A stretch of 64,000 nucleotides of DNA from contig CAVSLC010000015.1 of NCBI GenBank assembly GCA_963728565.1, forward strand, positions 8,546 through 72,545, in the 5' to 3' direction. The notes below the pieces were generated by a model. That model saw only the letters and a program-made list of their open reading frames with translations. It did no database searches and was not told the origin of the DNA. The DNA comes from an uncultured delta proteobacterium (GTDB lineage: Bacteria; Desulfobacterota; Binatia; UBA9968). The position numbers were made by a program, and so were the translations under genes. Shown here one piece after another: positions 13,050-29,914 of the stretch. Positions within the stretch are counted from its first letter, which is position 1; each line of letters starts with the position of its first letter.

Positions 13050-14111
13050 TTATCGCATTGGCAGCGGCGTCGCTCCGGAAAAGGTCTTGAACAGGTCGAT
13101 CAATTCAGGGTCGCGAGGGGTATCTTGAATGGCCTTGGTCAAATCCTCCGGCATCAACGGACTTGCCTCTTCGCCAACCACCTTGCGGTATTCGCGATGA
13201 AAATCCGGATCTGTAAAAGTCTTGCGCATCGCCTCCTGAAGATCAGCAACACGATCTTTGGGTGTCCCGGGCGACAGAACGTAAGGTGAGCCGGTGAGCC
13301 TGAATGTTCGCGAGAGAGCGAGCAGCCTGCGTTCTCGTTCGGACTTAGCGAAGGTTTCGATCTCAGGAAGGTGGCCAAAGCGGGGGTGCTTGAGATCTTT
13401 GGGAATTGCATAGATCGCATGGAAATCCATTAGACCTTTTTCCACCCAATCAGGATTGCGATGCCAAACTGAGGTTGCGGTGTTCGCCCTGGCGTCGATC
13501 TCCCCACTCAGCAGTGCGACGTCCAAGTCCGGCGCCCCGTACCCCGGGATAAACTTCGGGTCCTTCAAAGCGAGAAAGTACGCAAAGAATCGTGCCGCTA
13601 TGTAGGCGCTATGTCCGACGGGCCGGGTTCCCACTCTGACTCCGGGAGTCGCTCTGAGTTTTTCCAAACTGTTCAAGCCCACGTCTTTTCGGGTATAGAA
13701 CACTAGATGGCTGGAGCTTTCCGGCGAGCCGAGATAGAGGAATTTATCAACATCGTACATCACTCCGGTCTCACGTAAGAGACTTAGTCCAATGACGCTG
13801 CTGCTGAACGCGCCGATCGTGAGCCCGTCAGGGCGGGCGTTGCGAAATAGGTGATTGCCCACTTGTCGACCACCGCCGCCGTCCATGTACTCGATGAGGA
13901 TTGTGGGATTTCCTGCAATGTATTTGCGCAGAAAAGGAACCGTAGCCTTGACCCGGTTGTCGCCAATTCCTCCGGGGGCGGTCGCGGCAATGATCTTTAT
14001 GGTCTTGCCTTGGTAATAGGGCGCTTGCGCAAAGGCGTACTCGGGTGAAAGACCGGTTAGCACCACCAGCACGCCAAAGACTGCTAGTCCAACGAGGGCC
14101 TTGGTAATCAT
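13050..14111 (-). CDS. Bug/TctC binding protein (divergent)
   Basis: Signal peptide, APGG, RPDGLTIG, LSPGTPKDRV. Confidence 0.82.
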   Translation of the reverse strand: MITKALVGLAVFGVLVVLTGLSPEYAFAQAPYYQGKTIKIIAATAPGGIGDNRVKATVPFLRKYIAGNPTILIEYMDGGGGRQVGNHLFRNARPDGLTIGAFSSSVIGLSLLRETGVMYDVDKFLYLGSPESSSHLVFYTRKDVGLNSLEKLRATPGVRVGTRPVGHSAYIAARFFAYFLALKDPKFIPGYGAPDLDVALLSGEIDARANTATSVWHRNPDWVEKGLMDFHAIYAIPKDLKHPRFGHLPEIETFAKSERERRLLALSRTFRLTGSPYVLSPGTPKDRVADLQEAMRKTFTDPDFHREYRKVVGEEASPLMPEDLTKAIQDTPRDPELIDLFKTFSGATPLPMR

Positions 14112-14540
14112 AGGAGACCACCCAATTTCTTTTTTTCAGTCGGCCGAAAGTTTAACAGAAATCTTTTGCCACACCGGATCTGTGCAAAGCCAACAGATTT
14201 GAAAACCTTCCTAACTGATCTGGCGGCTTATGTCCATGCATATGCGGCTGCCTACCGGGCGAATCTGAAACCAGTCATGAGCAACTGTAAGAGAAAAGAA
14301 CCGAAGGATGGAGTGGGACTTATTTAATAGGGCGGCGACAAGAAACTATCAAGTGAGTAGGCGTGACAAAACCAGGCAACGGCTGACCGCTCTGGATAGA
14401 GTACTCAGGAACAACCCCCCGCGCGTTGCGGCGGTTAAACAGATGCTAGATCGATCGGAAAATTTTAATCGTAGGGCGTCGCGCCATTAACGCTTCGCAG
14501 GAGCGACGTTGCAGCATAAGACCTGACACCAGGTTCTTGG

Positions 14541-14680
14541 GCCGCGCCCGTTCTCCCGGTTGATCGAATGATAAAACAAAACCTGCCTCTTGCGCGCGCG
14601 GGATTCTCGGCATGGCAGGGCTTTATCATATAGGCGAACGGGATCACAACGATGAAAGTAGCCTGTCCCCTTTAATCCCC
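14541..14680 (-). mobile_element. RAYT family A 5'-end fragment
   Basis: Shares cggcatggcagggctttatcatataggcgaacg...aagtagcctgtcccctttaatcccc with the other copies. Confidence 0.8.
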
Positions 14681-14937
14681 TTCGAAAGTAAATGATCATG
14701 GCTCAACGACGCGGTGCCGTTCTCCGGCTCATTCGAAGTTAAACTCATTTTCAGAACACGCAGTCGATTAAAGCATCTAGGTACTGTGGCTCAACTAGCT
14801 AACTCCATACTTGACTTAAATGAAAAGCAGATGTTGCGAGCTGCACCTCGCAAATTGGGCGGTGACGGTCTCTAATGGACCAACATATTAACAGGCTGAC
14901 TCTGTGAGGAGTCGCCTAAGCCTAAAGGAGGTGCAGC

Positions 14938-16022
14938 ATGAAAGAGTATATAGGAGTGGACCTGGGGAAGCACAAGGCCGTGGTGGTAAAGAAAGATCGA
15001 CAGGGAAAGACAACCAGCAAGGTTACTGTACCTGTGACTCAAGCAGCATTGGAAAGTTATTTTTCGAAGCAGGACCGTCGAAGCCAGGTGGTGGTGGAGG
15101 CCACGGGGAACTGGATGTATCTCTACGAGACCATCGAGCGCTACACACCGGAGGTCGTCTTGGCACACCCACTTAAGACCCGGGCGATTGCCGAGGCACG
15201 GATTAAGACCGACACCATTGATGCGACGACCTTAGCGGAACTGCTACGTCTAGATGGCATCCCGAAAGCGTATATACCACCTCGTGAGGTTCGTGACATT
15301 CGAGAGTTGTTGCGTTACCGGGCCTCGCTGGTATCGATACGAGTCGGTATCAAGAACAAGATTCATGCGGTGCTGACCAAGAACGGCATCGATTGCACGT
15401 TCAGTGATATTTTGGGGAAATCCTCCCGGCAGTGGCTGAAGAGTCTAGCCGTGCGTGCTTGCTATCGGCTAGAGATTGATGGGTATCTACGGATCGCGGA
15501 GGCGTTGGCGATTTCGATTGGAGAGATCACAAAAACGATAAAGGCCGAGGTAGCTGAAAACCCACAGGCTCAACTATTGATGGGTATTCCGGGTATCAGC
15601 TACTACTCGGCTCTGTTAATCCTCAGTGAGATTGGTGAGGTAGACCGTTTTCCCAATGCCAAGCGATTGTGTTCGTATGCCGGCTTGGTTCCCAGTATCT
15701 ATAGCTCGGGAAGCAAGAGCTACAGCGGATCACCAAACAGGGTTCACGGTGGCTGCGATGGATTTTGGTAGAGATCAGCATCCATGCCGCCAACGGGGAT
15801 TCGAACTTTCAGAAAGTGTACCGCAGAGTGAGTCGACGACGCGGTCCTAGCACGGCGAGAGTGGCGGTAGCGCGAAAGATCCTCACTGTCATTTACGCCA
15901 TGCTAAAGCGAAGTGAGTCGTTTAACCGTCACAGACCTCGGCAACGACTTATGGCTGTACCTGGGCGAAAAAAAGTGACCGACGTCTCTGGTCATCCTCC
16001 TGGGGTCATGGTCCCGGCCTAA
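14938..16022 (+). pseudogene. IS110 transposase/recombinase with a frameshift near 15728
   Basis: DEDD motifs GVDLG, VEATG, KTDTIDA; SSG; ITKQGSRWLRWILVE restored in the next frame. Confidence 0.88.
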
Positions 16023-16200
16023 ACCGGAGATCCGAAGATTTGATTAGGAGACCAGAGTCGAATTCAATAATGTGCCGAAGAGCACGGATGAGTGACTGAC
16101 CGATTGGTCGACCGAGACCGAACAGAACTCTGGTCGCAAACAACGGCAGTGTGGGTGATTAGACTAACCCCACGCCTCCCGTGAAGAGGTGCATCTAAAC
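15984..16200 (+). ncRNA. Putative bridge/seek RNA of IS110 element 1
   Basis: Stem ctctggt/accagag plus ctcct/aggag enclosing ggggtca (reverse complement of target tgacccc); atgagtgact (16088) equals the donor junction. Confidence 0.65.
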
Positions 16201-16449
16201 GAGACCTTGACAAGTTTCTTTTCATGAGTGACCCCTTGATCCACCTCTCAGTTTTGTACAGACGCACAGCCACCAACAGGCAGTTCGTGGTGCCCTTTTC
16301 ACTGTTGACCTGCGCATCGTTGATCGGGTAATACGATTTCGGGACTACGTCCTTTACGAGTGGCTGCGAGCCTGGTCCCACGTAACAACGTGTACACAGT
16401 TTTCAAAGCCCGGCTCTGACCGAGAAAGCTTTAGGGTAAGGGAGACAAG

Positions 16450-17415
16450 GTGAAAGCATTCATCAGCATATTGATCCCAACTCAAGGTCGAATCGATCAA
16501 CTGAGGCGGCTGTTGCGTAGCTTGTCGCGGCTGGACGGTCGAGAAAATGTTGAACACGAAATCATCGTCTGCAACAACGCGCCGGACGATGTGAAAGCCC
16601 GCTCCGTAGAAGGTATCGTCAAGTATTACGTTGCAAAAGAGCCGAAACGATGGCACCTGGCGCGAGAACCCTTGCCTGGTAAAAGCCGCGCCTTAAATAA
16701 GATTATTCCGCTTTCAAGAGGGCAGATCCTGGGATTCTTAGACGATGACGTGGAGGTAAATTCCTCATGGCTGCAAGCTACTTGCAATTTCTTTTCTCAT
16801 CATTCCTTTGACGTAATGCAAGGATCTATTCTCGTACCGCCGGAGATGGCTGGTGATGAAAAGTTTCTTAAGCTGCTGAATCGTTATCGAACGATCTGTT
16901 ACTACCAGAAGCCTGGATTGGAAGTCAGGGAGATCCGCACTCTCAATGCAGCCAATATCGCGTTCAGACGCGAACTTCTTGAGAAGACAGATCTTTTCGA
17001 CGAGCGCATCGGTCCAGGTCAGTCGGGAACCTCAATGGATGTGGAGTTTGGCGAAAGAGTCCTGAGGAACGGAGGACGGATTGGCTACGATCCCAGTTCT
17101 ATTGTATACCACGAGGTCGACTGGAATCGCCTCACTGAGGATTATTTTCGTTTGCGTCATGAGAGGCAAGGAAGAAGCCGCCTCCTTTATAAATCCAGTT
17201 CACTACCAACTATTATGGGAGATTTGATCCGGGCTACGTGCGGTCTGGGTCTCTATTCGCTATTGAACGACGAACGTAAAAAGTATCGCGCCAAAGGCCG
17301 GTATTTTCATTATCGGGCCATGCTTGGCGAGAAAATTCGCCGCTCAGCTTGGCGCATGCGGCAGGTGCAGGGCGAACTATCACGTGAGCCAAGTGGCCGG
17401 CCGCCGTCGCTGTGA
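16450..17415 (+). CDS. Glycosyltransferase family 2
   Basis: ISILIPT, GKSRALN, FLDDD, FDERIG, DVEF. Confidence 0.9.
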   Translation: MKAFISILIPTQGRIDQLRRLLRSLSRLDGRENVEHEIIVCNNAPDDVKARSVEGIVKYYVAKEPKRWHLAREPLPGKSRALNKIIPLSRGQILGFLDDDVEVNSSWLQATCNFFSHHSFDVMQGSILVPPEMAGDEKFLKLLNRYRTICYYQKPGLEVREIRTLNAANIAFRRELLEKTDLFDERIGPGQSGTSMDVEFGERVLRNGGRIGYDPSSIVYHEVDWNRLTEDYFRLRHERQGRSRLLYKSSSLPTIMGDLIRATCGLGLYSLLNDERKKYRAKGRYFHYRAMLGEKIRRSAWRMRQVQGELSREPSGRPPSL

Positions 17416-17481
17416 TTGTCGACTGCGAATTGTTTGTATCGGTCACTGTCGGACTCAATCACTGCCGAGGTTAGTTTTCGT

Positions 17482-18591
17482 ATGAGATCGCCTTCATCAC
17501 GTTATTCGAATCGCGAGAGCCGGTTTCGCGTGATGTACATAGTTAAAAATTATCCACAGATGTCCGAGACTTATATCAAAACCGAGATCGAAGCCGTTGC
17601 TGAGCGCTGCGACGTTAGCGTCTTAGCAACAAGAAAAGCTAACTTGCCGGCAAAAGAGCATATGCCATTCAAGTTGGTTGAGGATACTTCAGCAATTGGT
17701 GAAGCCATAGAGGCGTTCCAGCCGGATGTTCTTCACAGTCACTGGTTAAATTCGGTGAAGATACTCGGCAAATTCGCGCGAAAGCTGAATATTCCGTTCA
17801 CAGTGAGGGCGCATTCTTTCGACTCGATTTGGCAGGAGAATAAGACGGCCTTTGACTTTCTGCCCTTTGTTCGTTCGTTCCGTCTACCATCTCGAATCCG
17901 CCGGGCCGTATCCCTTATCAACGACGACCTCTGTCTTGGTATTCTCGCGTTTCCCTTCGCCCGTGCCCGCTTGGAGAGGGCGGGCATTCGCGGTGACAAG
18001 ATCGTTGATTGCTATCCGGTGGTGAATTACCGTCGGTTTCATGACGAATCGCCAAACGGCGAAGCCATCATGAACGTTGGCGCGGCTATTCGGAAAAAAA
18101 AGATGGAGGACTTCATTGAGCTAAGCACCCTGGCTCCCAAGTTACAGTTCAATCTCTACGCTTTAGGATATAATGTGGAGCAGTTGCGGCAACTCAGCAT
18201 CGACAAAGCAAGCCCAGTCAATTTTATTTCACCCATCGAATTGGAGGATATGCCTGCCGAGTATAAGAAACACCGCTGGTTGGTTTATACAGCCGCAAAA
18301 GACGGAAGAGTCGGCTGGCCCATGTCTGTCGCAGAAGCTCAGGCGGCCGGGGTCGGTGTCTGCATGGCAAATATCCGGCCGGATTTGCGTGAGTATGTGG
18401 GTCCGGCCGGCTTTTTGTACGATTCACTCAGTCAAGTGCTGGAGATCATCTCCAAACCGTTTCCGGCGGAATTGCGAGAGATGGGCTTTGAGCACGCAAA
18501 GAAATCCGACATTTTTTCGCACCGCGCCTCGCTGTTCAAGCTTTGGCAAAAGGCGAACTCAGCTCACTCAGTTCAAGGTTCCCTATCATAG
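17482..18591 (+). CDS. GT-B fold (GT4-like) glycosyltransferase
   Basis: YPQMSETYI, HSHW, VGWPMSVAEAQAAG. Confidence 0.75.
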   Translation: MRSPSSRYSNRESRFRVMYIVKNYPQMSETYIKTEIEAVAERCDVSVLATRKANLPAKEHMPFKLVEDTSAIGEAIEAFQPDVLHSHWLNSVKILGKFARKLNIPFTVRAHSFDSIWQENKTAFDFLPFVRSFRLPSRIRRAVSLINDDLCLGILAFPFARARLERAGIRGDKIVDCYPVVNYRRFHDESPNGEAIMNVGAAIRKKKMEDFIELSTLAPKLQFNLYALGYNVEQLRQLSIDKASPVNFISPIELEDMPAEYKKHRWLVYTAAKDGRVGWPMSVAEAQAAGVGVCMANIRPDLREYVGPAGFLYDSLSQVLEIISKPFPAELREMGFEHAKKSDIFSHRASLFKLWQKANSAHSVQGSLS

Positions 18592-18616
18592 CCGAGCATT
18601 CTCGGTCATCACACGC

Positions 18617-19188
18617 CTGGGTCAGGCATGAGTTATTGACTTGTTGAGCCAACGCTGCAACTCCGATTCTGATCGCTTGTCCCGTTTCTCCACATACGCC
18701 GCGTGCAGCCGGCTAATCATCGATGCGTCGCGATGGAGGTGTTCTGCCGAACTCTCCATTTGATCCCGCATCACTCCCGCGCCGCATAGACCAACAACGA
18801 TCGCGGCTCTGCCCAGCTTCGCTTGCGTTCCGTGCGCAGCAGTCGCCCTGCTTCAATGCTATACAGCGACGCCACCCGCTCCACCAAGCGGGTAAATTTA
18901 ACCTTAACCTTTGCCGGCTCCGTTTCCTTTGTCTTCTTCTCAACTTCGTTGACAAACCGCTCGTCGCCTAAAAATCGTTGCTCTACCGTCTGATAGAGAC
19001 GATCCAGGTGCCCCTGACCCAGTCCCTCTTTGATAAAACCATGATACCCTCTTCGGGCAACGCTCGGATTGGACCCGAACTGCTTCAGCACGGAGCTGCT
19101 CTGAATCGTGACCGGAGTGTGTTCTCCGGCATAGGCCCGATGGCTGCTCCAGCGTGGCGCAACTAGCTAACTCCATACTTGACCCCTT
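18617..19188 (-). mobile_element. RAYT family B, internally deleted element (C-terminal half with helical tail)
   Basis: WSSHRAY, FLGDERFV, DASMISR; ends gggtcaggc ... cttgacccc. Confidence 0.7.
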
Positions 19189-19406
19189 AACCCCCTCCGC
19201 CGTGGAAAAGCAGCCGCCTGTTTCGTAGCCGTCGAACCGCGGAAACAACTTGAGCGGCATTGATTCAGAGAGCTAGAGAGGCTAAATCTTTGGTTAGCAT
19301 AATCAGTTCTCCTACAGAATGCTGTGCCCAGATAGGCGACTAAGCGTCAACCAAGACTAATTTCTATTTGCTATCAGCGATTTCATAGACAGAAAGAAGA
19401 AGCAAA

Positions 19407-19664
19407 ATGGATTTCGAAAAAGCAAAGCTGAATCCCGCAGCCGTTTTTAAGAGCCCTCAAGAAGTGGTTTCAAGTCAAGAATTGTCGCGCCAGCAAAAAA
19501 TTGAAATCCTTCAGCGATGGGAACAGGACGCGACGTTGATGGAAGTCGCGGAGGAAGAAGGCATGCCCGGCCCGCAACCCAAACTGCTACAGCCGATCCG
19601 CGACGCTCTGCACGCCCTCGATTATTGGCCGGATACTGAGAACTCGGGCCCCAGCAAAGTCTGA
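19407..19664 (+). CDS. Small hypothetical protein
   Basis: 85 aa; PAAVFKSPQEV...KIEILQRW...EEGM; looks coding. Confidence 0.65.
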   Translation: MDFEKAKLNPAAVFKSPQEVVSSQELSRQQKIEILQRWEQDATLMEVAEEEGMPGPQPKLLQPIRDALHALDYWPDTENSGPSKV

Positions 19665-19785
19665 GAAGCGGACCGCAAGAAAGTCGCGATGCGCAAAGCA
19701 ACTCCGTTCAACCTGACCCCTCAATGCCTTATCCAGGCTCGTCCGTTAAGTCGAGGTTAGGCCAACTCCGCAGGTTTACCTCCGC

Positions 19786-19814
19786 TTGACACAGTGCCCC
19801 GCCGTGCTTACCTT
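19786..19814 (+). promoter_or_regulatory. Sigma70-like promoter of the Hsp20 gene
   Basis: TTGACA-N17-TACCTT with an extended TG. Confidence 0.5.
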
Positions 19815-19855
19815 CTCATCAGCTTAAAGAAAAGGTTTAAAAAGGAGCGCTAATT

Positions 19856-20302
19856 ATGGAACTAGTAAGATGGGAACAGGTTGAAGGTGTAAACAGAATT
19901 CAGTCCCGGATCAACGAGCTATTCGAAGACGCGTTGGGTCGTACACGGGCGCAACAGAGTGCTGCTGCTGGAGTTTGGTATCCTCCCGTGGACATTCTTG
20001 AAAGTAAGGATTCGTATCTCATTCGCGCCGAGCTGCCCGGGATGAGAAACGAGGATCTCAAAACGGAAGTAAACGAGGGCATATTGACACTCAGTGGCGA
20101 GAGAAGGCTTGAAGAGCCGGCCAGTGGGGTCGAGTACCACCGGGTCGAGCGGGTTACAGGTAAATTTTCTCGATCCTTCCACGTGCCGCAAACCGTGAAC
20201 CCCGATGGCATCAAAGCGACCTATAGGGATGGCATACTTGAAGTACAAGTTCCCAAAGCCGATGAGGCCAAGCCGAGACAAATCGCTATAAGCTTGAATT
20301 GA
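19856..20302 (+). CDS. Hsp20/alpha-crystallin small heat-shock protein
   Basis: PPVDILE, AELPG, HRVER..GKFSRSF, YRDGILEV. Confidence 0.95.
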   Translation: MELVRWEQVEGVNRIQSRINELFEDALGRTRAQQSAAAGVWYPPVDILESKDSYLIRAELPGMRNEDLKTEVNEGILTLSGERRLEEPASGVEYHRVERVTGKFSRSFHVPQTVNPDGIKATYRDGILEVQVPKADEAKPRQIAISLN

Positions 20303-20330
20303 TTCATCGCAGAACCGTCAAACAGATACT

Positions 20331-20366
20331 CAGGGGGGAAAGCCAAGCGCTTCCTCCCTGTTTTCT
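20331..20366 (+). terminator. Intrinsic terminator after Hsp20
   Basis: caggggggaa...ttcctccctg stem followed by ttttct. Confidence 0.65.
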
Positions 20367-20399
20367 GGTAACCCCGCCAAAAAGCACTTAGCTTAGTAT

Positions 20400-20500
20400 C
20401 GAACACGTAATGCTCGCTCTTATGAAACACCGCGGCACGACCGTTGCCGCGGTTTATTATGGCGCAGAGCAGTTTGTCGACCACGCGTATTCCCTGCATA
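20400..20500 (-). mobile_element. Diverged RAYT A-like 5' fragment
   Basis: IINRGNGRAAVFHK. Confidence 0.55.
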
Positions 20501-20875
20501 AGCGGCTTCTAACATAGCCGGCGAGTTCGTCGCGATATTTGATTCTCATCCTCAATCAATCTCCGATCTGAGTTTGAGCGCGCCGGCATGGGGAATCTTC
20601 GCGGTCGACGGTGCTATGCCTTAGCCATTTCAACAGCTTTGTCCCAAGGAATCGTGTTTTCTGGCCTTAGCGCATCATTTGACCGGCAAATTCGCTGTCC
20701 TAAAAGTTTCTGAAATTAGCGCCGCTATGCAACCGATAGCACTGGATCAATAACTTTCTCTGCTTCGACTCGCCGGTAACCAAGTCCTGATACCATCATG
20801 AACGAGTTTGGAGCTATTGTCCCGATCACAAGAATTGGACAAGATAAGGAAGCCCCCGAAAAGGAGGATCCTGCG

Positions 20876-21157
20876 ATGCACTTGTTCCTGATCGTCGCAT
20901 TAGGGTTAGCGATTCTAACGGTCATCTTTGCACTGCAGAATCCTATTCCCGTTGGTGTGACTTTTTTTATTTGGAAATTTGAAGGCTCGTTGGCTCTAGT
21001 GCTGATATTAACATTTGCCCTGGGAGTTTTAGTGACTTTGTTGATATCGATCCCCGCTATAGTAAAAAGAAGATCGTCGACTTCACGTCAGACGAAGAAA
21101 ATAGAGGAGCTGGAGACTCGATCCCGCGAAAGGACCCCACCGCCCCCGTCACTATGA
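20876..21157 (+). CDS. LapA/DUF1049 family membrane protein
   Basis: FALQN..PV.V.F, two hydrophobic segments, basic tail; AGGAGG RBS. Confidence 0.8.
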   Translation: MHLFLIVALGLAILTVIFALQNPIPVGVTFFIWKFEGSLALVLILTFALGVLVTLLISIPAIVKRRSSTSRQTKKIEELETRSRERTPPPPSL

Positions 21158-21180
21158 CAGTTACGCTGCGGCAATAATAC

Positions 21181-21413
21181 ATCAGAGAGAAAGCAAACAT
21201 CTTAACTGGGTACCGCGCTTTGCTAGCGCACGGATGGAAAGAAAGGCTTGGTAATCTTGAGCTTCAAAAGGTCGTTCTGCGACCGTTCCTCGGTTGATCA
21301 CATGATAAACAAAACCAGCCTGTTGCGCATGCGGGATTCTCGGCAGGGCAGGGCTTTATCAAATAGACGCACGTGATCACAAACGAGAAAAGTAGCCTGT
21401 CCCCTTTAATCCC
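21181..21413 (-). mobile_element. RAYT family A 5'-end fragment
   Basis: Closely matches the other copies; ends aaaagtagcctgtcccctttaatccc. Confidence 0.85.
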
Positions 21414-21483
21414 GGTGGAAGTGATGGAGCCGGACGCGCGGCTTTGTTTTCCTTTGGACGGGCCATCGTTCATCTTAACGGGC

Positions 21484-22494
21484 TTATTCCCGTTTCTCCC
21501 ACCGTGCGATCAAGCCCAGCAAATCGCAGACGCGATTGGAGTATCCCCATTCATTGTCGTACCAACTGAGACACTTTAGATATCTACCGCCCGTAACGCT
21601 GGTAAATGCCGGGTCGAAAATAGAGGAGTGCGAATTCCCTATGACGTCGGATGATACGACGGGTGTTTCCATGAGTTGCAAAATGCCTTTCATCCGTTTC
21701 GAGTCCGCCGCGGATTTTATCGCGCCATGAACGTCCTCGGCACTAATACGTTTCTGGAGCTCGACGAACAAGTCGACCACGGAGCCATCGGGTACCGGTA
21801 CCCGCGCGGCGATTCCGTCCAGCCGTCCTTTCAATTCAGGCAAGACCTCGCCCACCGCCTTGGCCGCTCCGGTGGATGTCGGTATGATATTTTCCGCCGC
21901 GGCGCGGCTCCGCCGCCAATCCGAGTGCGGCACGTCGGCGAGGCGCTGATCGTTGGTGTAGGCGTGCACGGTATTGATGATTCCTTCCACGATACCGAAA
22001 GAATCGTGGAGCACCTTGGCCAGCGGCGCAAGACAATTCGTGGTGCAGCTCGCGTTAGAAATCATCCTGTGCTCGGGCTTGAGCCCGTCATCGTTGACGC
22101 CGATTACGACGGTATAATCGATCTCATCCTTCGCCGGAACGGTCAGCACCACTCGCTTGGCTCCCGCATCCAGATGCTTGGCAAGTTGTTCCCTGCTAGT
22201 GAATATTCCCGTCGATTCGATGACGACATCGATGTCGATCTCGCGCCAGGGCAGTTTGAGCGGGTCCTTTTCACGAAGCATGCGCGTCCGACCGTGCGAT
22301 GTCACCAGTTCATTGCCTTCGAGTCGCAGGGCGCCCTCAAAACGACCCATTACGGTGTCATAGTTGAGCAAGTATCGCAGCGCGTCATGGTCGAAGAGGT
22401 CATTGATCGCAACCAGTTCGGCGTCCGCCCGCTTATCGAGAATGCGGAACACAGAACGGCCGATTCGACCGAATCCATTAATGGCAACTCTCAT
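21484..22494 (-). CDS. gap: Type I glyceraldehyde-3-phosphate dehydrogenase
   Basis: INGFGRIGR, SNASCTTNCLAP, WYDNEWGYSNR. Confidence 0.95.
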   Translation of the reverse strand: MRVAINGFGRIGRSVFRILDKRADAELVAINDLFDHDALRYLLNYDTVMGRFEGALRLEGNELVTSHGRTRMLREKDPLKLPWREIDIDVVIESTGIFTSREQLAKHLDAGAKRVVLTVPAKDEIDYTVVIGVNDDGLKPEHRMISNASCTTNCLAPLAKVLHDSFGIVEGIINTVHAYTNDQRLADVPHSDWRRSRAAAENIIPTSTGAAKAVGEVLPELKGRLDGIAARVPVPDGSVVDLFVELQKRISAEDVHGAIKSAADSKRMKGILQLMETPVVSSDVIGNSHSSIFDPAFTSVTGGRYLKCLSWYDNEWGYSNRVCDLLGLIARWEKRE

Positions 22495-23510
22495 CGCCCA
22501 CCTCCGATCGTATCGAGGGTGCTGTAGTGCCGGACCACTTCGAGCACGCGGCACGCATGCCCCAGGCTCTCATACCAGGCCAGCACTTTGATTATTCTTT
22601 TTCCTGCTTTAATGGTGGCGAGCGAATCGAAGAGCAAGGATTGCCGGCAACCGATGACATCCGAAGAAACAATCGGATCATCGGTCACGCCGATCAACGT
22701 CGGATGATCGGCAGCGGCGGCGCGCATAGCTCCGCTCACTTGCTCGGCCGTGACGGTGCCAGCCTGCATGACGCAGTTAACATCGAGCAATGATCCGCGT
22801 TGGACCGGCACGTTAAGGGCGTAACCGCTCAACTTTCCCTCAAACTTGGGCAGAACAAGCTCCACCCATCGCGCGGACTCATTGTTGTTGGGGATGATAT
22901 TCTCCGCCGCGGACCGGCTGCGCCGGAAATCTTTGTGTGCATAATTCTGCAGCGACTGATCGCTACTATAGGCGTGGACCGTCGTCATCGATGCGCAGTC
23001 GACTCCTAAGGCCTGATCCAGAGATTGCAATAAAAGCGCAAATGCATTGGTGGTCGCGGAACCGGCCGAAATCATTTTGTCCGCGGCGGCGGCGCTCCCT
23101 TCATTGATTCCCGGTACTACGATACGGTCGATTGATTCCGCCGGCAGCGACGCCAGAATGACCCGCGGGGCACCGGCGCGCAGATGGGCCTCCATGTCCC
23201 GACGACTCTTATATCTGCCTGTGGCATCGACGACGCAGTGGACATCCAGAACATCCCATGGAACCTCCTCCGGCCGGACAAGCTGGAGCATTCTTGTGCG
23301 GAACTTCTCGTTGATCAGGTAATTGTCCTGGAGCTCGCAGGGCGCCTCGTCCACGCCGTCGCTATTGAGCAGATACTGAATGATTTCAGGTTTGCCGATA
23401 TCGGCCACCGCGACGATTTCGATATCATCTATTTCCCGCGCAAGGTGATACAGATGCCGCCCAATTTGGCCCAATCCCATAATGCCGATTCGGATTTTAC
23501 CATTACGCAT
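22491..23510 (-). CDS. GAPDH-like protein lacking the catalytic Cys
   Basis: GLGQIGR; SAGSATTNA in place of SNASCTTNC; VHAY; WYE. Confidence 0.88.
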   Translation of the reverse strand: MRNGKIRIGIMGLGQIGRHLYHLAREIDDIEIVAVADIGKPEIIQYLLNSDGVDEAPCELQDNYLINEKFRTRMLQLVRPEEVPWDVLDVHCVVDATGRYKSRRDMEAHLRAGAPRVILASLPAESIDRIVVPGINEGSAAAADKMISAGSATTNAFALLLQSLDQALGVDCASMTTVHAYSSDQSLQNYAHKDFRRSRSAAENIIPNNNESARWVELVLPKFEGKLSGYALNVPVQRGSLLDVNCVMQAGTVTAEQVSGAMRAAAADHPTLIGVTDDPIVSSDVIGCRQSLLFDSLATIKAGKRIIKVLAWYESLGHACRVLEVVRHYSTLDTIGGGR

Positions 23511-23632
23511 TTGGCCGCCTCCGTTTCCGCAAAATTAAGCGCTCGAAGTTGGCGTTATCCATAGCCGAGAACTCTAACAACCGATCAACCAAAAGAAAAT
23601 GCTTTTCTGAGGAAATCGTCAAACTGGAGGTG

Positions 23633-23950
23633 TAAAGGGGAGAGGCTACTTTTTATCTACTTCCTCATTTCGCTGAGACTGGTGATGCGAAGCTTCAATC
23701 AGAAAGTGCAAGTGATTCGGCATCAGAGCGAAAGCAAACATCTTAACTGGGTGCCGCGCTTTGCTAGCGCGAGGATGGAAAGAAAGACTTGGTAATCTTG
23801 AGCTTTATCAGAGATAGTTGCACGACCGTTACCTCGATTGATCACATGATAAATGAAACCAGCCTGTTGCGCACGTCGGCATGGCAGGGCTTTCATACAG
23901 GCGAACGTGATCACAGACGATGAAAGTAGCCTATCCCCTTTAATCCCCCC
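23633..23950 (-). mobile_element. RAYT family A miniature element (both ends, internal deletion)
   Basis: taaaggggagaggctactttt ... aagtagcctatcccctttaa. Confidence 0.85.
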
Positions 23951-24170
23951 GATTTGAACATGGTTCGCGCCCGAGTGGTTACGCATCCCTGTGATTGGAC
24001 ACACAGCGGCGCATCGCGAAGTCATTGAAAGTGGCGGTACATATGAGCTCCGGGAGCAGACTCAAAGTTATGGGTCCAATTTCGGCGGTTAAATGAGGTG
24101 CTAAGCTTGGATATACTAGCTTCTGGAACGAAGATTTAAACCTAGTGCAACTTAGGCTTGGTCCGACCCC
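23951..24170 (+). mobile_element. RAYT family C deleted fragment with an intact cttggtccgacccc end
   Basis: Matches 26399-26451 joined to ~26687-26850. Confidence 0.75.
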
Positions 24171-24289
24171 GGACTTCTAGTTTCACCCGGTAGGGTCGCA
24201 GGCTACTGCAGTAGAGCCGGCGGAGTATATGGGCGCGGCAAAATCCTTTTGAGCTGCCAAGAGCCCCGTACGGCAAACTTCAGGGTGAA

Positions 24290-25759
24290 TTACCGTATGA
24301 ACCCTAACAGTCTCCAATAAGGAACACTGACGCCTAACGCTAAAAAGTTCGCAGCGCATCGTACCACCATGAGTTTCCGAGCTTGCGCATGTGAAAACGC
24401 ATTGCCGTCTGTACTGTAAAAGGCGATTTGATAAGCATCGTTCTGAGATAGAAGAAACCAGCTCTCATTTGCCATAAGGATGGTGATTAGAAGAATTCCG
24501 GGATGCACCCCCAGCTCCTGCCCCCAAGAACTTAGCCCGAGAGTGGATAAGAGAATAACGGTTGGTGTTTTACCGAGAAAGAAACGAATGAAGTACACGG
24601 CTACTGAAACAACCGTCAGAAAAGCCAAAGGACCCAACGCCACATAAGAAAAGTATGGACCGATAGATGCCATGAGCCACTGATCGATTTTTAGATGACG
24701 CATGATGCCGTCGAAACTCGAAATCACACCTAAGAAAAAGAGGAAACCCCAATCTATTCTGGCTTTGAAATCGTCTTTTTCGAGTACTCTGGTTAGAAGG
24801 AAAACTGAGAGCGCGCCCAACGCAACCCATGTCTCGCTCAATCCATGCATTGGCTTTGATAACCACCCGACAAGCGCGAACATCAGTATTCCGAGACTAA
24901 GCCGTTCATTACGGGTTAATGATTTCGGCCTATCGAGAGGATGATCTGGTTGTTTCACTTGGCTAGACCGTGAAATGACTTCGGTCGGGAACAGGTAGTG
25001 TACTCCGAGGAGTAGGCATCCCAGTGTAACGACTCCCGCCGGAAGCGCGGCCACAGCCCAAGTCGTCCAGCCAAAATCCAATTTGGCTGCTTGCGGAAGT
25101 AAGTTCCATCCGATCAAGCAGGAGGTCGCTCCTGTAAGGAACATAAATGCACATTGGGTAAAACCGACATACGCTGAGAGGCCTATTCCCGCCGAGCCGT
25201 TCGAGCGCCTTTCAAATCCCATTGTTTCCGAGATCGTTCTACTGAGAGGTGCTGCTATCGCCATACGAGCCTTACTCGTTGGCATCACCGGGGTAACTAT
25301 GAGACCAGATATGGTGAGTAACCAGGTGTACATCCGGTAATTAGGCGAGATCCGGCGCAGAGTTTCTAAAGCTATACTATGAAACAGCCCAGATTTGTTG
25401 ACGGCAACAGCGATCCCAAGAACTGCAACAACAAAGCACCATGACGTCTTGGAGAACCCGGCCAGCGCTACTTCTGAGGGCACGGCATCCGAAACTACCC
25501 AAAAAAGCAACATCAATATGCCGACAAGATACTCGTCGTATACGTTGAACATGAGAAGCAGCGTTCCGGCGGTAAGACTACCGAGAAAATAGAGTCCGCT
25601 CGCATCCAGGAGGGCGGGGGTCGGAAGCTGCATGACTAGCCAACCCATCGTCAAAGCGATCATCAGGCCAATAAGTTTTCCATCAAATATCTGCGCCGCG
25701 TTCCGTGCTGACCACAACGAGTCCGTTATCGGCTGGAGAGTCTGGCTGCGATTCATCAA
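24290..25759 (-). CDS. SLC13/DASS family anion transporter
   Basis: Many hydrophobic segments; LAGFS, PTSKAR, FLTG, IDWGFL, PYWRLLGFI. Confidence 0.85.
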   Translation of the reverse strand: MMNRSQTLQPITDSLWSARNAAQIFDGKLIGLMIALTMGWLVMQLPTPALLDASGLYFLGSLTAGTLLLMFNVYDEYLVGILMLLFWVVSDAVPSEVALAGFSKTSWCFVVAVLGIAVAVNKSGLFHSIALETLRRISPNYRMYTWLLTISGLIVTPVMPTSKARMAIAAPLSRTISETMGFERRSNGSAGIGLSAYVGFTQCAFMFLTGATSCLIGWNLLPQAAKLDFGWTTWAVAALPAGVVTLGCLLLGVHYLFPTEVISRSSQVKQPDHPLDRPKSLTRNERLSLGILMFALVGWLSKPMHGLSETWVALGALSVFLLTRVLEKDDFKARIDWGFLFFLGVISSFDGIMRHLKIDQWLMASIGPYFSYVALGPLAFLTVVSVAVYFIRFFLGKTPTVILLSTLGLSSWGQELGVHPGILLITILMANESWFLLSQNDAYQIAFYSTDGNAFSHAQARKLMVVRCAANFLALGVSVPYWRLLGFIR

Positions 25760-26314
25760 CGAACCACGTCAAATGCTAGGCCGCACTGCGAAGGTGTTTC
25801 TTCGGCATTTGACAACTGTTCAAAGAGAATTTTAGTCATCGCTTCAATAACAATTTGTCCGCCCATTATATCTTTCCGGCTTTCTAAGCTTGAGTAGCCA
25901 TTCATGTTAACATCTCTTCAGTGACAAAACCCTTTCCTTCACAACGAGCTACGTCTTCCGGTTCCCCCGGATGACACCCGCGCTACGTAGAAACGTTCTC
26001 CTATAGCTGCATCTTGTTTCGGATCAGGCGGGAACTGCCAACCAAAACAGATAAGGCAAAGCCGATGCCGTTTACTGATCGGAGTTTTAACCGTTTGTCG
26101 GTAAACCGTGGCACTGCTGGGGTGACGATAAATGCCAAAAGTGACTGTCGCTGCACAAAAGCGTCGTCTGATTTTCTACTCGGCACGTTGGGAAGCTGAG
26201 AAACCGCACTGACTCAAGAGTAACATCGATGGAGGGAGGTGGGCCGGTTAGCGCTTATGGCGGATATTTCCAACATAAATACCAAACTGCATCAACCCAG
26301 CAATCCTGAGATGT

Positions 26315-26850
26315 TTCGTCACGGCGCATTTTGGAGACCGCTATCATGCCACGGCCATCGAGATTAACGAGCAACTTCAACATTGTCTCGTTTACATCGA
26401 TTTGAATATAGTTCGCGCCGGAGTCGTTACGCATCCCTGTAATTGGACACACGCGGGTTATCGAGAGATGCAGAAACCCCCCGAAGCGCTACGGGATTAT
26501 CGATCTACCGGAGTTAAGTTCGCTATGTGGATTCGGCGACGTTGCAACATTTCAGCAAGCACATCGTCGGTGGGTAGATGATTCACTCGCGCGCGAGGCG
26601 ATGGCAAGAGAAGGTGCGTGGTCAGAAGCGATTGCGGTCGGCAATTTGAATTTTGTTGATAAGGTGCAGAACGAACTCGGATACAAAGCGGCACACCGCG
26701 AAGTCATTGAAAGTGGCGGTACATATGAGCTCCGGGAGCAGACTGAAAGTTATGGGTCCAATTTTAGCGGTCAAAATGAGGTGCTAAGCTCGGAGAACAC
26801 TAGATTTTGGAACGAAAGTTCCGAAGTTACTGCAACTTAGCTTGGTCCGA
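26315..26850 (+). pseudogene. RAYT family C transposase, 3' half
   Basis: AFW..RYHATAIE, CLVYIDLNIVRAGVVTHP..W, WSEAIAVG. Confidence 0.8.
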
Positions 26851-26928
26851 TAATCATCTAGCAGGCTCCTTCGATAGGCCGTAACGTGCGGGGACATCAA
26901 CCCACACCCGCTCAAAGGAGGAAGCGAG

Positions 26929-27945
26929 ATGAAATTGTACGGAGCTATTGATTTGCATTCCAACAACAACGTGACGGTGGTGATCAACGAGCAAGATCAA
27001 GTGTTGTATCAGAAGCGCTTGCCCAACGATCTTTCGTTGATCGCGCAGCAACTCTCGAGCTATCGCAGATCGCTACAGGGAATCGTGGTGGAGTCTACCT
27101 ATAACTGGTACTGGCTGGTCGATGGACTGATGGAGAAGGGCCATCAAGTTCATCTGGCCAACACCGCGGCGATCCAGCAATACAATGGGCTGAAGTACAC
27201 CGATGACCACAGCGACGCGCGGTGGCTGGCCCATCTGCTGCGGCTAGGGGTCTTACCCGAGGGCTACATTTATCCCAAGGAAGAGCGAGCGGTGCGTGAT
27301 TTGTTGCGCAAGCGCGGCCAGCTCGTGCATCAGAGGACGGCTAATCTTCTCAGTATCCAGAGTCTAATCAGCCGGACCACGGGAAACTCGATCGGCACCC
27401 AGTACATCAAAGCGCTCAATATCGAACATCTGGATGGAGTCTTACCTAACCCGGATCACATCCTTGCACTCAAAGCCAATCTGGCAGTCATGAAAAGCGC
27501 TGATGCCCAGATCGAGATCTTGGAAAAAGCCGTCCAGGACCGAGTCAAGCTACGACCTCAGTTCGGATTTCTAAAGACGGTACCCGGAATCGGGCCGATC
27601 CTGGCGCTGACGATCATGCTCGAGACCGGAGAGATCGAGAGATTTGCCTGTGTCGGCAATTACGCTTCGTACTGTCGCTGTGTGGGGAGCCAGAAGATCA
27701 GCAACGGCAAACGTAAAGGAATCGGCAATACCAAAAACGGCAACAAGTATTTGGCCTGGGCGTTTGTAGAGGCTGCCAATTTTGCGATCCGGTTTAATTC
27801 GAAGATCAAAGGCTTCTATCAGAAAAAGAAATCTAAGAGCAATGGGATTGTGGCAATCAAAGCGGTGGCCCACAAGCTCTGCCGGGCTTGCTACTACATT
27901 ATCAAAGATCAGGTGGCTTTTGATCTCACCAAAGCGTTTGCTTAG
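26929..27945 (+). CDS. IS110 transposase/recombinase, intact
   Basis: AIDLH, VVEST, TDDHSDA, VPGIG, SNG, NKYLAWAFVEAA. Confidence 0.93.
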   Translation: MKLYGAIDLHSNNNVTVVINEQDQVLYQKRLPNDLSLIAQQLSSYRRSLQGIVVESTYNWYWLVDGLMEKGHQVHLANTAAIQQYNGLKYTDDHSDARWLAHLLRLGVLPEGYIYPKEERAVRDLLRKRGQLVHQRTANLLSIQSLISRTTGNSIGTQYIKALNIEHLDGVLPNPDHILALKANLAVMKSADAQIEILEKAVQDRVKLRPQFGFLKTVPGIGPILALTIMLETGEIERFACVGNYASYCRCVGSQKISNGKRKGIGNTKNGNKYLAWAFVEAANFAIRFNSKIKGFYQKKKSKSNGIVAIKAVAHKLCRACYYIIKDQVAFDLTKAFA

Positions 27946-27959
27946 CAGATCGATTTAAC

Positions 27960-28320
27960 GGTTGGGATGGGATAGTGAGCCTTGGCTGGGGTTGGCTTAG
28001 AACCACATGGTCCGATTTGGCGGCTCTCCCGTCCCTGATCATATGGACAACTCGGCGGTGCTGTGATTCGATGGACGCCCACGCCGTGAGCCACAATAGG
28101 GTTGGCCCCCAACAGGGAGAGCCACAGGATCTGTGATCCTATAACCTTGGACGCGGCGTGGTACCGATAGTTTTCTGGGGCAATTAAGATTGCCAGGGGC
28201 GCGAGATCGCTGCCCGAGAGGACAGCTCTCAAAGCCTTGAACCTGATGGGTGACTGGTGCGTACCTACGGTCCGACACCAACTGATTGAAAACAGGGGCG
28301 CGTCAATCAGGGATCACATA
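27960..28320 (+). ncRNA. Putative bridge/seek RNA of IS110 element 2
   Basis: Stem gggatggga/tcccgtccc plus gagcc/ggctc enclosing ggggttgg and tggtccga, both matching the target; further hairpins downstream. Confidence 0.65.
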
Positions 28321-28582
28321 GTCGGCGAGGGTTCAAAAAGGGAATAAGAAAAATTCTCACAGGAACGTCTGTGCCTCTTGACCTGCCTGCTAATGGGCGA
28401 CCCAACGCTTTGTACGCAAAACTGACTTTCACCATGGGCTGCTAAACGTGGAGAGCCTCGAACAAACGCTTGGGGGAGACTCAGAGAGAAGCCGCCCATT
28501 GAAAAGTAGGCCGTTTGGCTTTCCCCATCAGAGTGGCGTGGGATCTGATGGGGAAAGCCGCGACCAGAACACTCGACAATCG

Positions 28583-29914
28583 CTAAAACCGAGCATTGGC
28601 CCAGTTGGCGACATAGTTCCACGTATTGAGCAGCACGTTAACATAAGGGCCCGTACCGTGGTAAGCAGCGCATTCATTGCAGTTCCCGCCGCCGTGGGTC
28701 GCCCCCTCCACGACGATAAACTCCTTATTGATGGCGGCCGCATTCTCGAAGATCTCCTCGCCATCACGAATGAAATAGTGGCCTTGGTGCGCCAAAACCA
28801 GGGTGGGCACCGAGATCACCCGAACCGCGCAGACCGTAGAGTTATTGGTCGAGCACCAATCCAGGTCATCAAGCGCATGGTGAGAGCGGATTGCATTGGC
28901 ACTTAAGAATGATGTGATTGTGAATTCCTCGGGGCTGTTTTCATCGTCGTCCTTGATATCTGGAGTAGGAACTCTGACGGTACGAATGATCTGCGGGGCC
29001 GAGAGCTCCCCGGTCGCGTCCTGTAGAAGTTTCGTTGGATTCAGCGTGCAGCAGTGAACCTGGGTGGTAAGTTGCACCAAACGCGCGTTGACGCGGTTAA
29101 GAACAAATGCGTCATCAGCCGGGTCATGCAACCCAAGCTCCATTTTGCGCCTGATTGTTAGAGCATCCCTAATCAGATTGTTCATACGTCTTGACTGCGC
29201 AAGAGAGTATTTGTCGACAAAATGATCCGAGTAGGTTGAATCGCCATCCGGTTCGTGGTCTGGCGGGAGGCCGTTGTAGCCGTTTGCCGGGTCGAAAGGG
29301 TCGAGCGTTTTATTGATCGCAGGACCGAATGGTTGGTTTTCATTGACGACAGATGCGTTAACCGAACGCAGCCCATTGACCCCGACTCCCGGATGCGCGT
29401 CAGTAAAAACGATTCCGTTAGCTCTATCCGCAGCGTTGAAATCTGTGTCTGTAAAAGGGCACTCAGTAATTTTCTTAGGCCCCTGGCAGTAAGATGGGCC
29501 ATTTTCCGCTAACGCCTGGTAGTAGGACGTGCTCGGACCACCCCCACTGCGCCCAACTAGAATGACGCTTGTGTGTCCTTTGCTTCTTAGGAATCGCACT
29601 CCATTCCGTATATCGAGAGCGATTAGCTCGAAGTTGACGGCGGCTTCGCTATTGCCGAACCTAGTTCTGATACCAAGAGTGCCAAAGCCTCGATTTGCCA
29701 ACTCCACAGATGACTGATGGTTTCGATAGTCATTGGTGCGATGGATAGAAAGGAACGCGATGCGAGGCACTGGCCCCACCGCTGGAACCCGATAACGGCC
29801 AAGCGCGCCGTCACCCAAATTAACTTCTTCGATAGTTACCTGGGCAGAAGCGTTGGTCATTCCGAGAACTATGCCCAAACCAACGATGAATGACAAAATC
29901 TTTAATCTTACCAT
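28583..29914 (-). CDS. Secreted alpha/beta hydrolase fold protein
   Basis: Signal peptide; GRSGGG nucleophile elbow; EGATH. Confidence 0.75.
   Translation of the reverse strand: MVRLKILSFIVGLGIVLGMTNASAQVTIEEVNLGDGALGRYRVPAVGPVPRIAFLSIHRTNDYRNHQSSVELANRGFGTLGIRTRFGNSEAAVNFELIALDIRNGVRFLRSKGHTSVILVGRSGGGPSTSYYQALAENGPSYCQGPKKITECPFTDTDFNAADRANGIVFTDAHPGVGVNGLRSVNASVVNENQPFGPAINKTLDPFDPANGYNGLPPDHEPDGDSTYSDHFVDKYSLAQSRRMNNLIRDALTIRRKMELGLHDPADDAFVLNRVNARLVQLTTQVHCCTLNPTKLLQDATGELSAPQIIRTVRVPTPDIKDDDENSPEEFTITSFLSANAIRSHHALDDLDWCSTNNSTVCAVRVISVPTLVLAHQGHYFIRDGEEIFENAAAINKEFIVVEGATHGGGNCNECAAYHGTGPYVNVLLNTWNYVANWANARF

Follow-up and report, generated by a model that had tools for sequence, protein, structure and literature searches.

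Two IS110-family elements and their insertion sites

The DNA analysed here, referred to as the window, is a 64,000-nucleotide stretch (positions 8546-72545) of contig C15 (CAVSLC010000015.1) from an uncultured deltaproteobacterial-type genome, GCA_963728565.1, denoted G000 below. It carries two insertion sequence (IS) elements of the IS110 family, labelled ISA and ISB, in the vicinity of remnants of genes resembling REP-associated tyrosine transposases (RAYT; REP, repetitive extragenic palindromic). The genomes and contigs that carry these elements come from soil metagenomes. Pfam domains PF01548 and PF02371, the N-terminal DEDD RuvC-like and the C-terminal Transposase_20 domain expected of the IS110 family, are found in both transposase open reading frames (ORFs), at 14938-15771 (277 amino acids) and 26929-27945 (338 amino acids). 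The NCBIfam model NF033542 ("IS110 family RNA-guided transposase", cut-off 140 bits) is matched at 184 bits by ISB and at 227.7 bits by an intact ISA copy from a same-genus genome, G005. The ISB transposase also has distant matches to the solved ISCro4 and IS621 transposases (E 5.7e-6 for IS621). In each element the longer non-coding region lies downstream of the gene for the transposase (tnp), with 78 nt upstream and 452 nt downstream in ISB, and 122 nt and 206 nt in ISA. The subterminal inverted repeats are 8 bp each, which is the short end of the range given for the IS1111 group. Judged by domains, layout and repeats, ISA and ISB are IS1111-type members of the IS110 family, and the proposal of an initial annotation that both are RNA-guided agrees with these features and with the predicted guide segments described below. 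The same annotation had called the two elements unrelated, a description that does not stand. Their transposases are 27% identical over ~250-260 residues (E 3e-25), both fall under the NCBIfam IS110 model, and the elements have a common 3' non-coding architecture; they are therefore divergent, not unrelated. The features of the two elements and their sites are as follows.

14781-14815, plus strand: left half of the 35-40-nt ISA target module, ...CAACTAGCTAACTCCATACT followed by TGA
14812-16232, plus strand: ISA, IS1111-type, including TGA(C) at both junctions (from the G005 copy, junction comparison and the empty G005 site)
14938-16022, plus strand: ISA transposase gene, broken, reading 277 plus 85 amino acids (intact form 362 amino acids)
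16233-16242, plus strand: right half of the ISA target module, CCCTTGATCC
19154-19195, plus strand: second, uninterrupted ISA target module adjoining a RAYT-like fragment (blastn 29/30)
24152-24172, plus strand: unoccupied cognate site for ISB, GGCTTGGTC-CGA-CCCCGG, where a paralogous RAYT-like fragment (23950-24150) has its 3' end
26300-26838, plus strand: frameshifted RAYT-like pseudogene comprising the C-terminal two thirds, with its 3' end as the ISB left flank (stop TAG at 26836-26838)
26848-28400, plus strand: ISB, IS1111-type, including CGA at both junctions (from relatives' copies, junctions and soil contigs)
26859-26866 and 28385-28392: ISB subterminal repeats, TAGCAGGC and GCCTGCTA (the ISA counterparts are ATGAAAAG and CTTTTCAT)
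26929-27945, plus strand: ISB transposase gene, intact, 338 amino acids (Pfam, NF033542, distant ISCro4/IS621 match)

A full copy of ISA in G005 is 96% identical and corresponds to window positions 14811-16235, and a deleted copy is present on contig C28 of G000. The TGA(C) of ISA is found at 14812-14815 on the left and 16229-16232 on the right, in the junctions ...CCATACT-TGA(C)-TTAAATG... and ...ATGAG-TGA-CCCCTTGATCC, respectively. Comparison with the G005 and C28 copies gives TGA as the core, the window copy having one additional C at its left junction. The same site is empty in G005, reading CTAGCTAACTCCATACTTGAC-CCCTTGATCC, with both flanks matching. The G005 region C13:675-696 kb was considered as an orthologue of the window and rejected, only the 35-40-nt module being matched at the ISA site; because that region matches through the module alone, the module is taken to be a dispersed repeat. 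It resembles RAYT terminal repeats and lies 131 nt from a RAYT 5' fragment. Pairwise alignment to the intact 362-amino-acid gene of G005 places a 4-nt deletion after 15726 in the window gene, so the window copy is either broken or mis-assembled. We describe it as a broken copy in a near-cognate site. A search of relatives with the intact ISA transposase returned three loci, one of them the G005 copy, and no new ISA insertions.

The CGA of ISB occupies 26848-26850 and 28398-28400, in the junctions ...GCTTGGTC-CGA-TAATCATC... on the left and ...AATGGG-CGA-CCCAACGC on the right. Matches in relatives start at 26849 (a few at 26835-26844), and most of those reaching the right end stop at 28403, the position at which soil-metagenome contigs diverge from ISB into at least three different sequences. 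No empty-site contigs were present among the soil-run contigs, in which uncovered stretches are uninformative. Nor did they contain joints or circular forms of the element, which assembled contigs could not reveal in any case. In distant ISB-type elements (~75% identity) TGA replaces CGA. The different cores that the initial annotation gave for the two elements (TGAC and CGA) are thus retained, with ISA corrected to TGA, and the empty or uninterrupted sites agree with both.

ISB looks intact. Its site is subterminal in the RAYT-like pseudogene, 9 nt beyond the stop codon, with homology to the RAYT-like element running ~12 nt further, a caveat to calling it an element end. Within the pseudogene, positions 98-147 of our RAYT hidden Markov model (HMM) align to 26330-26479, and a family-specific C-terminal part runs to the TAG. 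Homologous 3' ends without an IS were found at window position 24160 and, with small differences, in G005 and in another genome, G006; in these IS-free copies the RAYT homology runs ~12 nt past CGA, as CCC[C/A]GGAGTTC. The right flank of ISB in the window (28401-28420, CCCAACGCTTTG) differs from this tail. An old ISB fragment on another contig of G000 (C10:204396) lies between a RAYT fragment on the left and the RAYT tail CCCGGAGTTCT on the right. Since the tail is absent beside the window copy yet present at the old fragment, the alignments suggest a rearrangement next to the right end of ISB.

Two side observations concern ISB copies elsewhere. In a G005 copy (L014, G005:C15:9698-14273) an ORF follows the element (locus positions 1203-1574, minus strand), and its N-terminal extension is read from the IS end. 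By its sequence pattern, its product is a putative SRAP/YedK-type protein without its N-terminus. Solo copies of the final 100-300 nt of ISB are common in family genomes (e.g. L021, L024, L038, L039); they keep the part with the donor-guide match, and the target loop and gene are missing.

Predicted guide loops and their covariation with the flanks

The target-binding loop predicted for each element lies around the stop codon of its transposase gene. Scanning each IS for k-mers that pair with its target and donor sequences, with G-U pairs tolerated, was too noisy alone, and an alignment of relatives was used instead. The predicted elements of the two RNAs are listed below.

15986-16057, plus strand: ISA target-binding stem-loop, outer stem 15986-16000 paired with 16047-16057
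16000-16008, plus strand: ISA right-target guide CTGGGGTCA, within the last tnp codons
16014-16027, plus strand: ISA inner hairpin
16035-16043, plus strand: ISA left-target guide AAGATTTGA
16088-16096, plus strand: ISA candidate donor guide ATGAGTGAC, the same sequence as the right end (16224-16232)
27963-28035, plus strand: ISB target-binding stem-loop
27987-27995, plus strand: ISB right-target guide TGGGGTTGG
28007-28015, plus strand: ISB left-target guide ATGGTCCGA
28245-28253, plus strand: ISB candidate donor guide GATGGGTGA, which agrees with the right end AATGGGCGA (28392-28400) apart from one U-G wobble

The 5' guides read GGGGTCA in ISA and GGGGTTGG in ISB, and the 3' guides AAGATTTGA (AAGATT-TGA) and GGTCCGA, respectively. 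The GGGGT(C/T) that had been noticed in both guide loops is therefore present, as CTGGGGTCA at 16000-16008 and TGGGGTTGG at 27987-27995. In both elements the order and the sequence fit the arrangement of the IS1111 group, in which a top-strand complement comes first and a bottom-strand match second. The segments that match each element's own right end are probably donor guides. The ISA loop folds at -33.3 kcal/mol (z = -3.84), with none of 200 shuffles as good. Its guides match the flanks of the G005 copy perfectly (AAAGATT-TGA on the left, TGA-CCCCGG on the right), and those of the C28 copy with one wobble.

In seven aligned ISB-type elements, the region after the stop codon consists of an outer stem that is conserved, a 5' loop strand with GGGTTGG at its end, a small hairpin and a 3' loop strand that follows AACCAC. 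The consensus fold (RNAalifold) has an 18-bp outer stem with three compensatory pairs. The 3' strand equals the left flank plus the core, for instance ATGGTCCGA with TTGGTC-CGA in the window, AAAGTCTGA with AAAGTC-TGA in L016 and TAGATTTGA with AAGATT-TGA in L017. The 5' strand, before TTGG, complements the core and right flank, e.g. CCGGG with CCCGG; examples are CCGGGTTGG with CGA-CCCGG (L014, L025), AAATAGGG with CCCTATTT (L019) and, allowing one C slip, CATAGGGG with CCCCCTATG (L015). The site predicted by the guides of ISB itself, TGGTC-CGA-CCCCRG, is exactly the one found empty at 24160, which fits them better than the element's own right flank does.

A covariance model of the ISB loop gave 24 matches in 19 of 90 family genomes; 23 loci were used, one from an unpublished genome being omitted, and 20 elements could be parsed. 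At left-flank positions -6 to -3 there are 33 identities to the guide in 56, reached by 7 of 2000 shuffles among elements, and at right-flank positions 4-8 there are 34 Watson-Crick matches in 90, reached by 3 of 2000, with the reservation that these shuffle counts overstate independence because several elements are near-identical copies. Since the guides of ISB-type elements covary with their flanks, the cores, the GACCC targets and the GGGGT guide loops can be taken as real.

The target repeat and RAYT-like genes

The target of both elements, GRYY-YGA-CCCC, coincides with the terminal inverted repeat that RAYT-like Y1-transposase genes have in this bacterial family (GGGGTCA.../...YGACCCC). 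The only intact Y1_Tnp gene in G000, on contig C7, is flanked by 22-bp repeats, GGGGTCAAATCTTTTGTTGACA upstream and TGTCAACAAAAGATTTGACCCC at the end, and the TGA in its second repeat is its stop codon. Together with 20 homologues from five relatives it forms a set of 21 full-length genes. Their proteins combine Y1_Tnp with a DnaA-C-like helix-turn-helix; they score 35-52 bits against PF01797 (cut-off 23) and 50-73 bits against the NCBIfam REP-associated tyrosine transposase model NF047646, below its cut-off of 80. GGGGTC occurs within 130 nt upstream of 15 of the 21 genes (opposite strand, 0/21; in-gene window, 3/21), and YGAC[CA]CC occurs between -6 and +30 of the stop codon in 14 (1 and 0 in the same controls); both repeats are present in 10/21. 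In 9-10 of the genes the stop codon itself is YGA.

RAYT subfamilies differ in the letters before YGA (AGATT, AGACT, AAGTC, AGGCC, AGGTC, AAGCC), and one subfamily has GGGGTCGGACC upstream, the complement of the GGTC-CGA-CCCC of ISB. The left-guide classes of ISB-type elements include AGATT, AAGTC, AGGCC, AGGTC and GGTC-CGA. For each of AGATT, AGACT, AAGTC, AGGCC, AGGTC and GGTC-CGA there is a RAYT gene with a matching end. Guide variants match the variants of the RAYT-subfamily repeats, a point that adds to the known insertion of IS110/IS1111 elements in REP sequences.

The 13-mer AAGAYTTGACCCC occurs 89 times in 19 of 41 relatives (10 of these matches in the unpublished genomes G012 and G018); its reversed control occurs 0 times, and in the 11 genomes of family f3 the 13-mer itself was found 0 times. 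Five genomes yielded 46 exact motif sites, of which 8-9 have a PF01797 match no more than 500 nt away, and at 6 of 20 sites taken from G025 and G029, RAYT N- or C-terminal coding sequence lies directly inside the motif. PF01797 matches number 14 in G005, 18 in G015, 7 in G016, 4 in G025 and 32 in G029, short IS200-type ORFs included.

We compared the insertions themselves with RAYT genes in 19 left junctions (16 ISB-type, 3 ISA) and in 9 further ones from the covariance-model loci, 28 in total. In the first set, RAYT coding sequence was found by HMM within 1.4 kb of 2 of 19 junctions and by blastn at one more (L020, a 153-nt match); because L020 was missed by the HMM, its negatives are weak on short C-terminal remnants. 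Another 5/19 share only 15-25 nt with sampled RAYT gene ends. Two of the nine new junctions (L114, L119) are in the left repeat, with the start codon of a RAYT gene 38-60 nt away. The RAYT-adjacent insertions are therefore five: ISB in the window, the ISA copy on C28, L020, L114 and L119. The left flanks match RAYT ends past the guided bases, L002 and L017 sharing 15-22 nt with the C7 and L076 repeats, and L020 and the C28 copy ~150 nt with RAYT 3' ends. In G000, each of the four copies or fragments of ISA or ISB either touches a RAYT fragment or has one no more than ~130 nt away. The association of the target repeat with RAYT-like elements is far above chance, and most targets are solo repeat copies. 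A REPIN-type doublet of the repeat as the general target was rejected, as only 3 of the 19 junctions fit it.

It is noted that a DDE-type IS (487-amino-acid transposase, DUF772 plus DDE_Tnp_1_6; terminal repeat TTTGGGCAACAGACCG) abuts the motif AAAAGAYTTGACCCC at 6 of the 20 motif sites of G025 and G029 (L044, L045, L047, L055, L056, L062). It does so with one end only, which may be either end. Two loci carrying it (L086, L087) are at G025:C1:689500-697000 and 727500-734500. Since this element abuts the repeat at 6/20 sites, a third kind of element uses it.

In the window itself, seven RAYT-like fragments were detected with a custom HMM built from the 21 full-length proteins. The model was adopted after tblastn of one RAYT protein against the fetched loci had given only two matches. 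The RAYT-like pieces of the window and a related motif, in addition to those already listed, are:

7250-7442, 21200-21340, 23682-23875 and 30173-30262, all minus strand: further RAYT-like fragments
12338-12735, minus strand: RAYT-like N-terminal fragment, HMM positions 1-132
14521-14530, plus strand: unoccupied RAYT-end-like motif AAGACC-TGA-CACC (ACCTGACACC)
14543-14680, minus strand: RAYT-like 5' fragment (repeat family D1) that ends with ...GTCCCCTTTAATCCCC at 14680, the ISA junction being 131 nt away
19154-18777, minus strand: RAYT fragment adjoining the uninterrupted ISA module, HMM positions 137-269

The motif at 14521 had been listed as a further RAYT end. Its sequence is like that of the 3' ends of the RAYT genes in L064 and L079, but the HMM found no RAYT coding sequence on its inner side. 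For the repeat families D1-D14, taken from window positions 7150-30470, blastn places every G000 copy on the window's 72.5-kb contig, which looks like a graveyard of RAYT-like fragments among housekeeping genes. In one place a minus-strand N-terminal piece (23682-23875) is joined at ~23949 to a plus-strand C-terminal piece (23950-24150), the 5' end ...TTTAATCCCC running straight into the internal sequence CGATTTGAAC. In another genome (L093, G002:C201) a variant of the ISA module follows a RAYT fragment ending at HMM position 138. The fragments at window position 19154 and in L093 are broken at the same codon (...KYP / RWSSHRAY..., HMM 137/138), on opposite sides of the module; exchange of flanks at the site is one possibility for this shared breakpoint.

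Interpretation, known systems and neighbouring genes

The best explanation of the whole, to which we give a probability of about 0.8, is that ISA and ISB are RNA-guided elements that insert at the RAYT-like terminal repeat GRYY-YGA-CCCC. A seek or bridge RNA would be made from the region at and after the transposase stop codon and be bound by the recombinase. One stem-loop of this RNA would carry two guides, the 5' guide pairing with the top strand of core and right flank, and the 3' guide, which has the sequence of left flank and core, pairing with the bottom strand. A second region, matching the element's own right end, would serve as donor guide. Directed by this RNA, the recombinase could insert the circularised element at GRYY-YGA-CCCC, either in the terminal inverted repeat of a RAYT-like element or in a solo copy. 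On the right repeat, the YGA that would serve as insertion core is often the RAYT stop codon. The repeat may in this way offer a low-cost landing site.

Several observations weigh against this explanation. RAYT coding sequence abuts only 5 of the 28 left junctions, most insertions being in solo repeats, and 11 of the first 19 junctions have no similarity to the 21 sampled RAYT loci, which come from six genomes and leave the source genomes of several junctions uncovered. At only 3/19 junctions is there an inverted GGGGTC no more than 150 nt from the target, against a background of 1.5% of windows. The left guide agrees with the left flank at five or more of six positions in only 7 of 14 elements (mean 4.07), and on the right a fit of at least 6/8 is reached in only 2 of 18. 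In the window, the left flank of ISA has one true mismatch and one wobble to its guide, and the right flank of ISB matches only at CCC and two of the next five bases. The ISB covariance model gives no match to the ISA loop at E <= 10, and scanning the entire window against Rfam gives nothing at gathering scores. Contigs from RNA libraries span 27845-28403 and portions of the ISB gene, which is no proof of transcription.

These data partly support the initial annotation. It had described both targets as GACCC(C) ends of RAYT elements: the right flanks do start with CCC(C) and the target is the RAYT-like terminal repeat, but the ISB site is subterminal and that of ISA lies at no demonstrable element end. 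It had also proposed RAYT ends as a multicopy safe harbour, and a census of insertions that would speak against this if most sites lacked RAYT-terminal context. If context is read as an adjacent RAYT gene, 5/28 junctions have it and the census goes against the proposal. The harbour is modest, given 2 exact 13-mers in G000 and 0-14 per genome, counts that cover the commonest repeat form. The weak form of the idea, in which the elements aim at a RAYT-type terminal repeat, holds, and the strong form, unrelated elements converging on a multicopy harbour, does not.

Convergence is unproven because the two elements belong to one family. ISA and ISB might instead have inherited repeat targeting from one IS1111-type ancestor, or swapped guide modules, and the common GACCC target would then be uninformative on independent selection for RAYT ends. 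We consider this account tentative, though the best placed of the alternatives. Their transposases are homologous and their layout is the same (3' non-coding region, subterminal repeats, outer stem, 5' guide, hairpin, 3' guide), and AGATTTGA-TTAG, present in TGA-type relatives of ISB, is identical in its 11-12 letters to the left guide region of ISA. Given the family, the layout and this left guide AGATTTGA, shared ancestry or guide exchange is as likely as convergence. However, the stems outside the guides have no common sequence, the ISB model misses ISA, and at least six left-guide classes exist in ISB-type elements; since guides are the fastest-changing part of the RNA, identical guides in lineages only 27% identical are unlikely to have been simply retained.

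A more ambitious extension, which we hold to be doubtful, would make this IS1111-type clade a hyperparasite of RAYT-like elements. Its guides would diversify with the terminal repeats of the subfamilies, and its core would fall on the stop codon, sparing the reading frame of the host element. Successive insertions and excisions, together with recombination among copies, would have shuffled flanks at the site and made the mosaic of RAYT fragments on this contig, and the second IS lineage and the DDE-type IS would share the repeat.

It is unlikely that the repeat is instead a general landing pad or recombination site of several element types, of which RAYT-like genes are mere users and not the source. 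Such a site would fit the DDE-type IS abutting AAAAGAYTTGACCCC at 6/20 sites, the combination of differing left and right flanks at the motif (L044 and L050 have a common right flank and different left ones), and the breakage of RAYT fragments at a single codon next to the ISA module in two genomes. The right repeat, however, takes in the last 5-6 RAYT codons and the stop codon and is mirrored upstream at ~1.0 kb spacing in three genomes, which argues that it is part of the RAYT element, and repeat variants specific to RAYT subfamilies exist. Very improbable is a coincidence in which the elements recognise a short generic YGACCC and the RAYT proximity reflects mobile DNA piled on one contig: the D1-D14-type repeats of G000 are all on this contig, 23/28 insertions have no adjoining RAYT coding sequence and YTGACCCC is under-represented in G000 (135 observed vs ~339 expected), but the guides specify ~12-18 nt and not 6, the left flanks of L002, L017, L020 and the C28 copy match RAYT ends past the guided bases, the repeat flanks 14-15 of 21 RAYT-like genes vs 0-3 in controls, and L114 and L119 sit in left repeats.

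Returning to RNA-guided insertion at the RAYT-like repeat, the habit of IS110/IS1111 elements of residing in REP sequences is already established, and the present case is the same kind of system in a new lineage. ISPpu9 and ISPpu10 of Pseudomonas putida are described, in the partial accounts available, as IS110-family elements in REP sequences; solo copies of the 3' small-RNA gene ssr9 of ISPpu9 are comparable to the solo ISB 3' fragments, although the host phylum and the repeat differ. IS4321 and IS5075, going by a paper title, reportedly target the terminal repeats of Tn21-family transposons. That would be the same "parasite of a parasite" logic, an IS1111-type element aimed at the terminal repeat of another transposon, with a DDE Tn3-family transposon as host there and a Y1-transposase element here.

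The IS1111 layout, in the portions of the literature consulted, has a long non-coding region downstream of tnp and subterminal repeats usually of 11-13 bp (PMC11187229) or of 7-17 bp (PMC11208160). Excerpts of the former describe ISPa11, an IS1111-group element of Pseudomonas aeruginosa, as targeting REPs with a seekRNA in which the complement to the top strand comes ahead of the match to the bottom strand, and mention natural retargeting between the close relatives ISEc11 and ISXne4. As far as these excerpts go, ISA and ISB are like ISPa11 in the downstream non-coding region, subterminal repeats, guide order and REP-type target. Unlike it, their transposases are family-level relatives only, the RNA is predicted from sequence, the subterminal repeats are 8 bp, and the repeat is a low-copy one capping multi-copy RAYT-like genes. 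IS621, an IS110-group element of E. coli, uses a bridge RNA and inserts in REP elements, according to the same kind of extract (PMC11208160). It has in common with ISA and ISB the DEDD/Ser recombinase family, a REP-type target and separate target and donor guide regions around a short core. By that extract, IS621 has its bridge RNA upstream of the gene, within the left end, and CT as its core, whereas here the RNA region is 3', the core is YGA and the ISA loop begins within the coding sequence.

In classical RAYT/REPIN systems (Nunvar 2010; Bertels and Rainey 2011, 2017), the passages available describe a Y1 gene between inverted short repeats that are also found elsewhere in the genome, typically one gene copy per genome, and flanking 16-mers in tens to >100 copies (PMC5581495). 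The genes here are multi-copy, with one intact RAYT-like gene and ~10 fragments in G000 alone, carry a DnaA-C-like domain and reach 73 against a cut-off of 80 bits in NCBIfam, and their flanking repeat is rare (no more than 14 exact 13-mers per genome). These DnaA-helix-turn-helix-bearing genes sit between classical RAYTs and insertion sequences. Titles and abstract openings of the RAYT-IS110 and REPIN literature contain no description of IS110-family guides that correspond to the terminal repeats of RAYTs; comparable targets may be listed in the supplements to the bridge-RNA and seekRNA papers. What differs from known cases is the host lineage, of soil deltaproteobacterial type, the YGA core on the RAYT stop codon, and the low-copy "REP" of multi-copy RAYT-like genes. 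The picture of how IS110-family elements work is unchanged by this locus. It does provide a natural series of reprogrammed guides within one IS1111-type clade, with targets readable from the flanks, which is useful for learning the rules of 3'-encoded seek or bridge RNAs, among them the trinucleotide YGA core and the U-G wobble tolerated there.

The genes between ISA and ISB are:

16450-18591: two glycosyltransferases
19856-20302: Hsp20
also between the elements: a LapA-domain protein, two GAPDH genes and a Na/sulfate-type symporter

Two long ORFs adjoin the IS, at 13050-14111 and 28583-29914 (both minus strand; 353 and 443 amino acids), and belong to no Pfam family at E <= 0.01. A third IS110-family gene is present elsewhere in G000 (C1:7419-8447); it is degraded, with in-frame stops and a PF01548 score of 27 bits.

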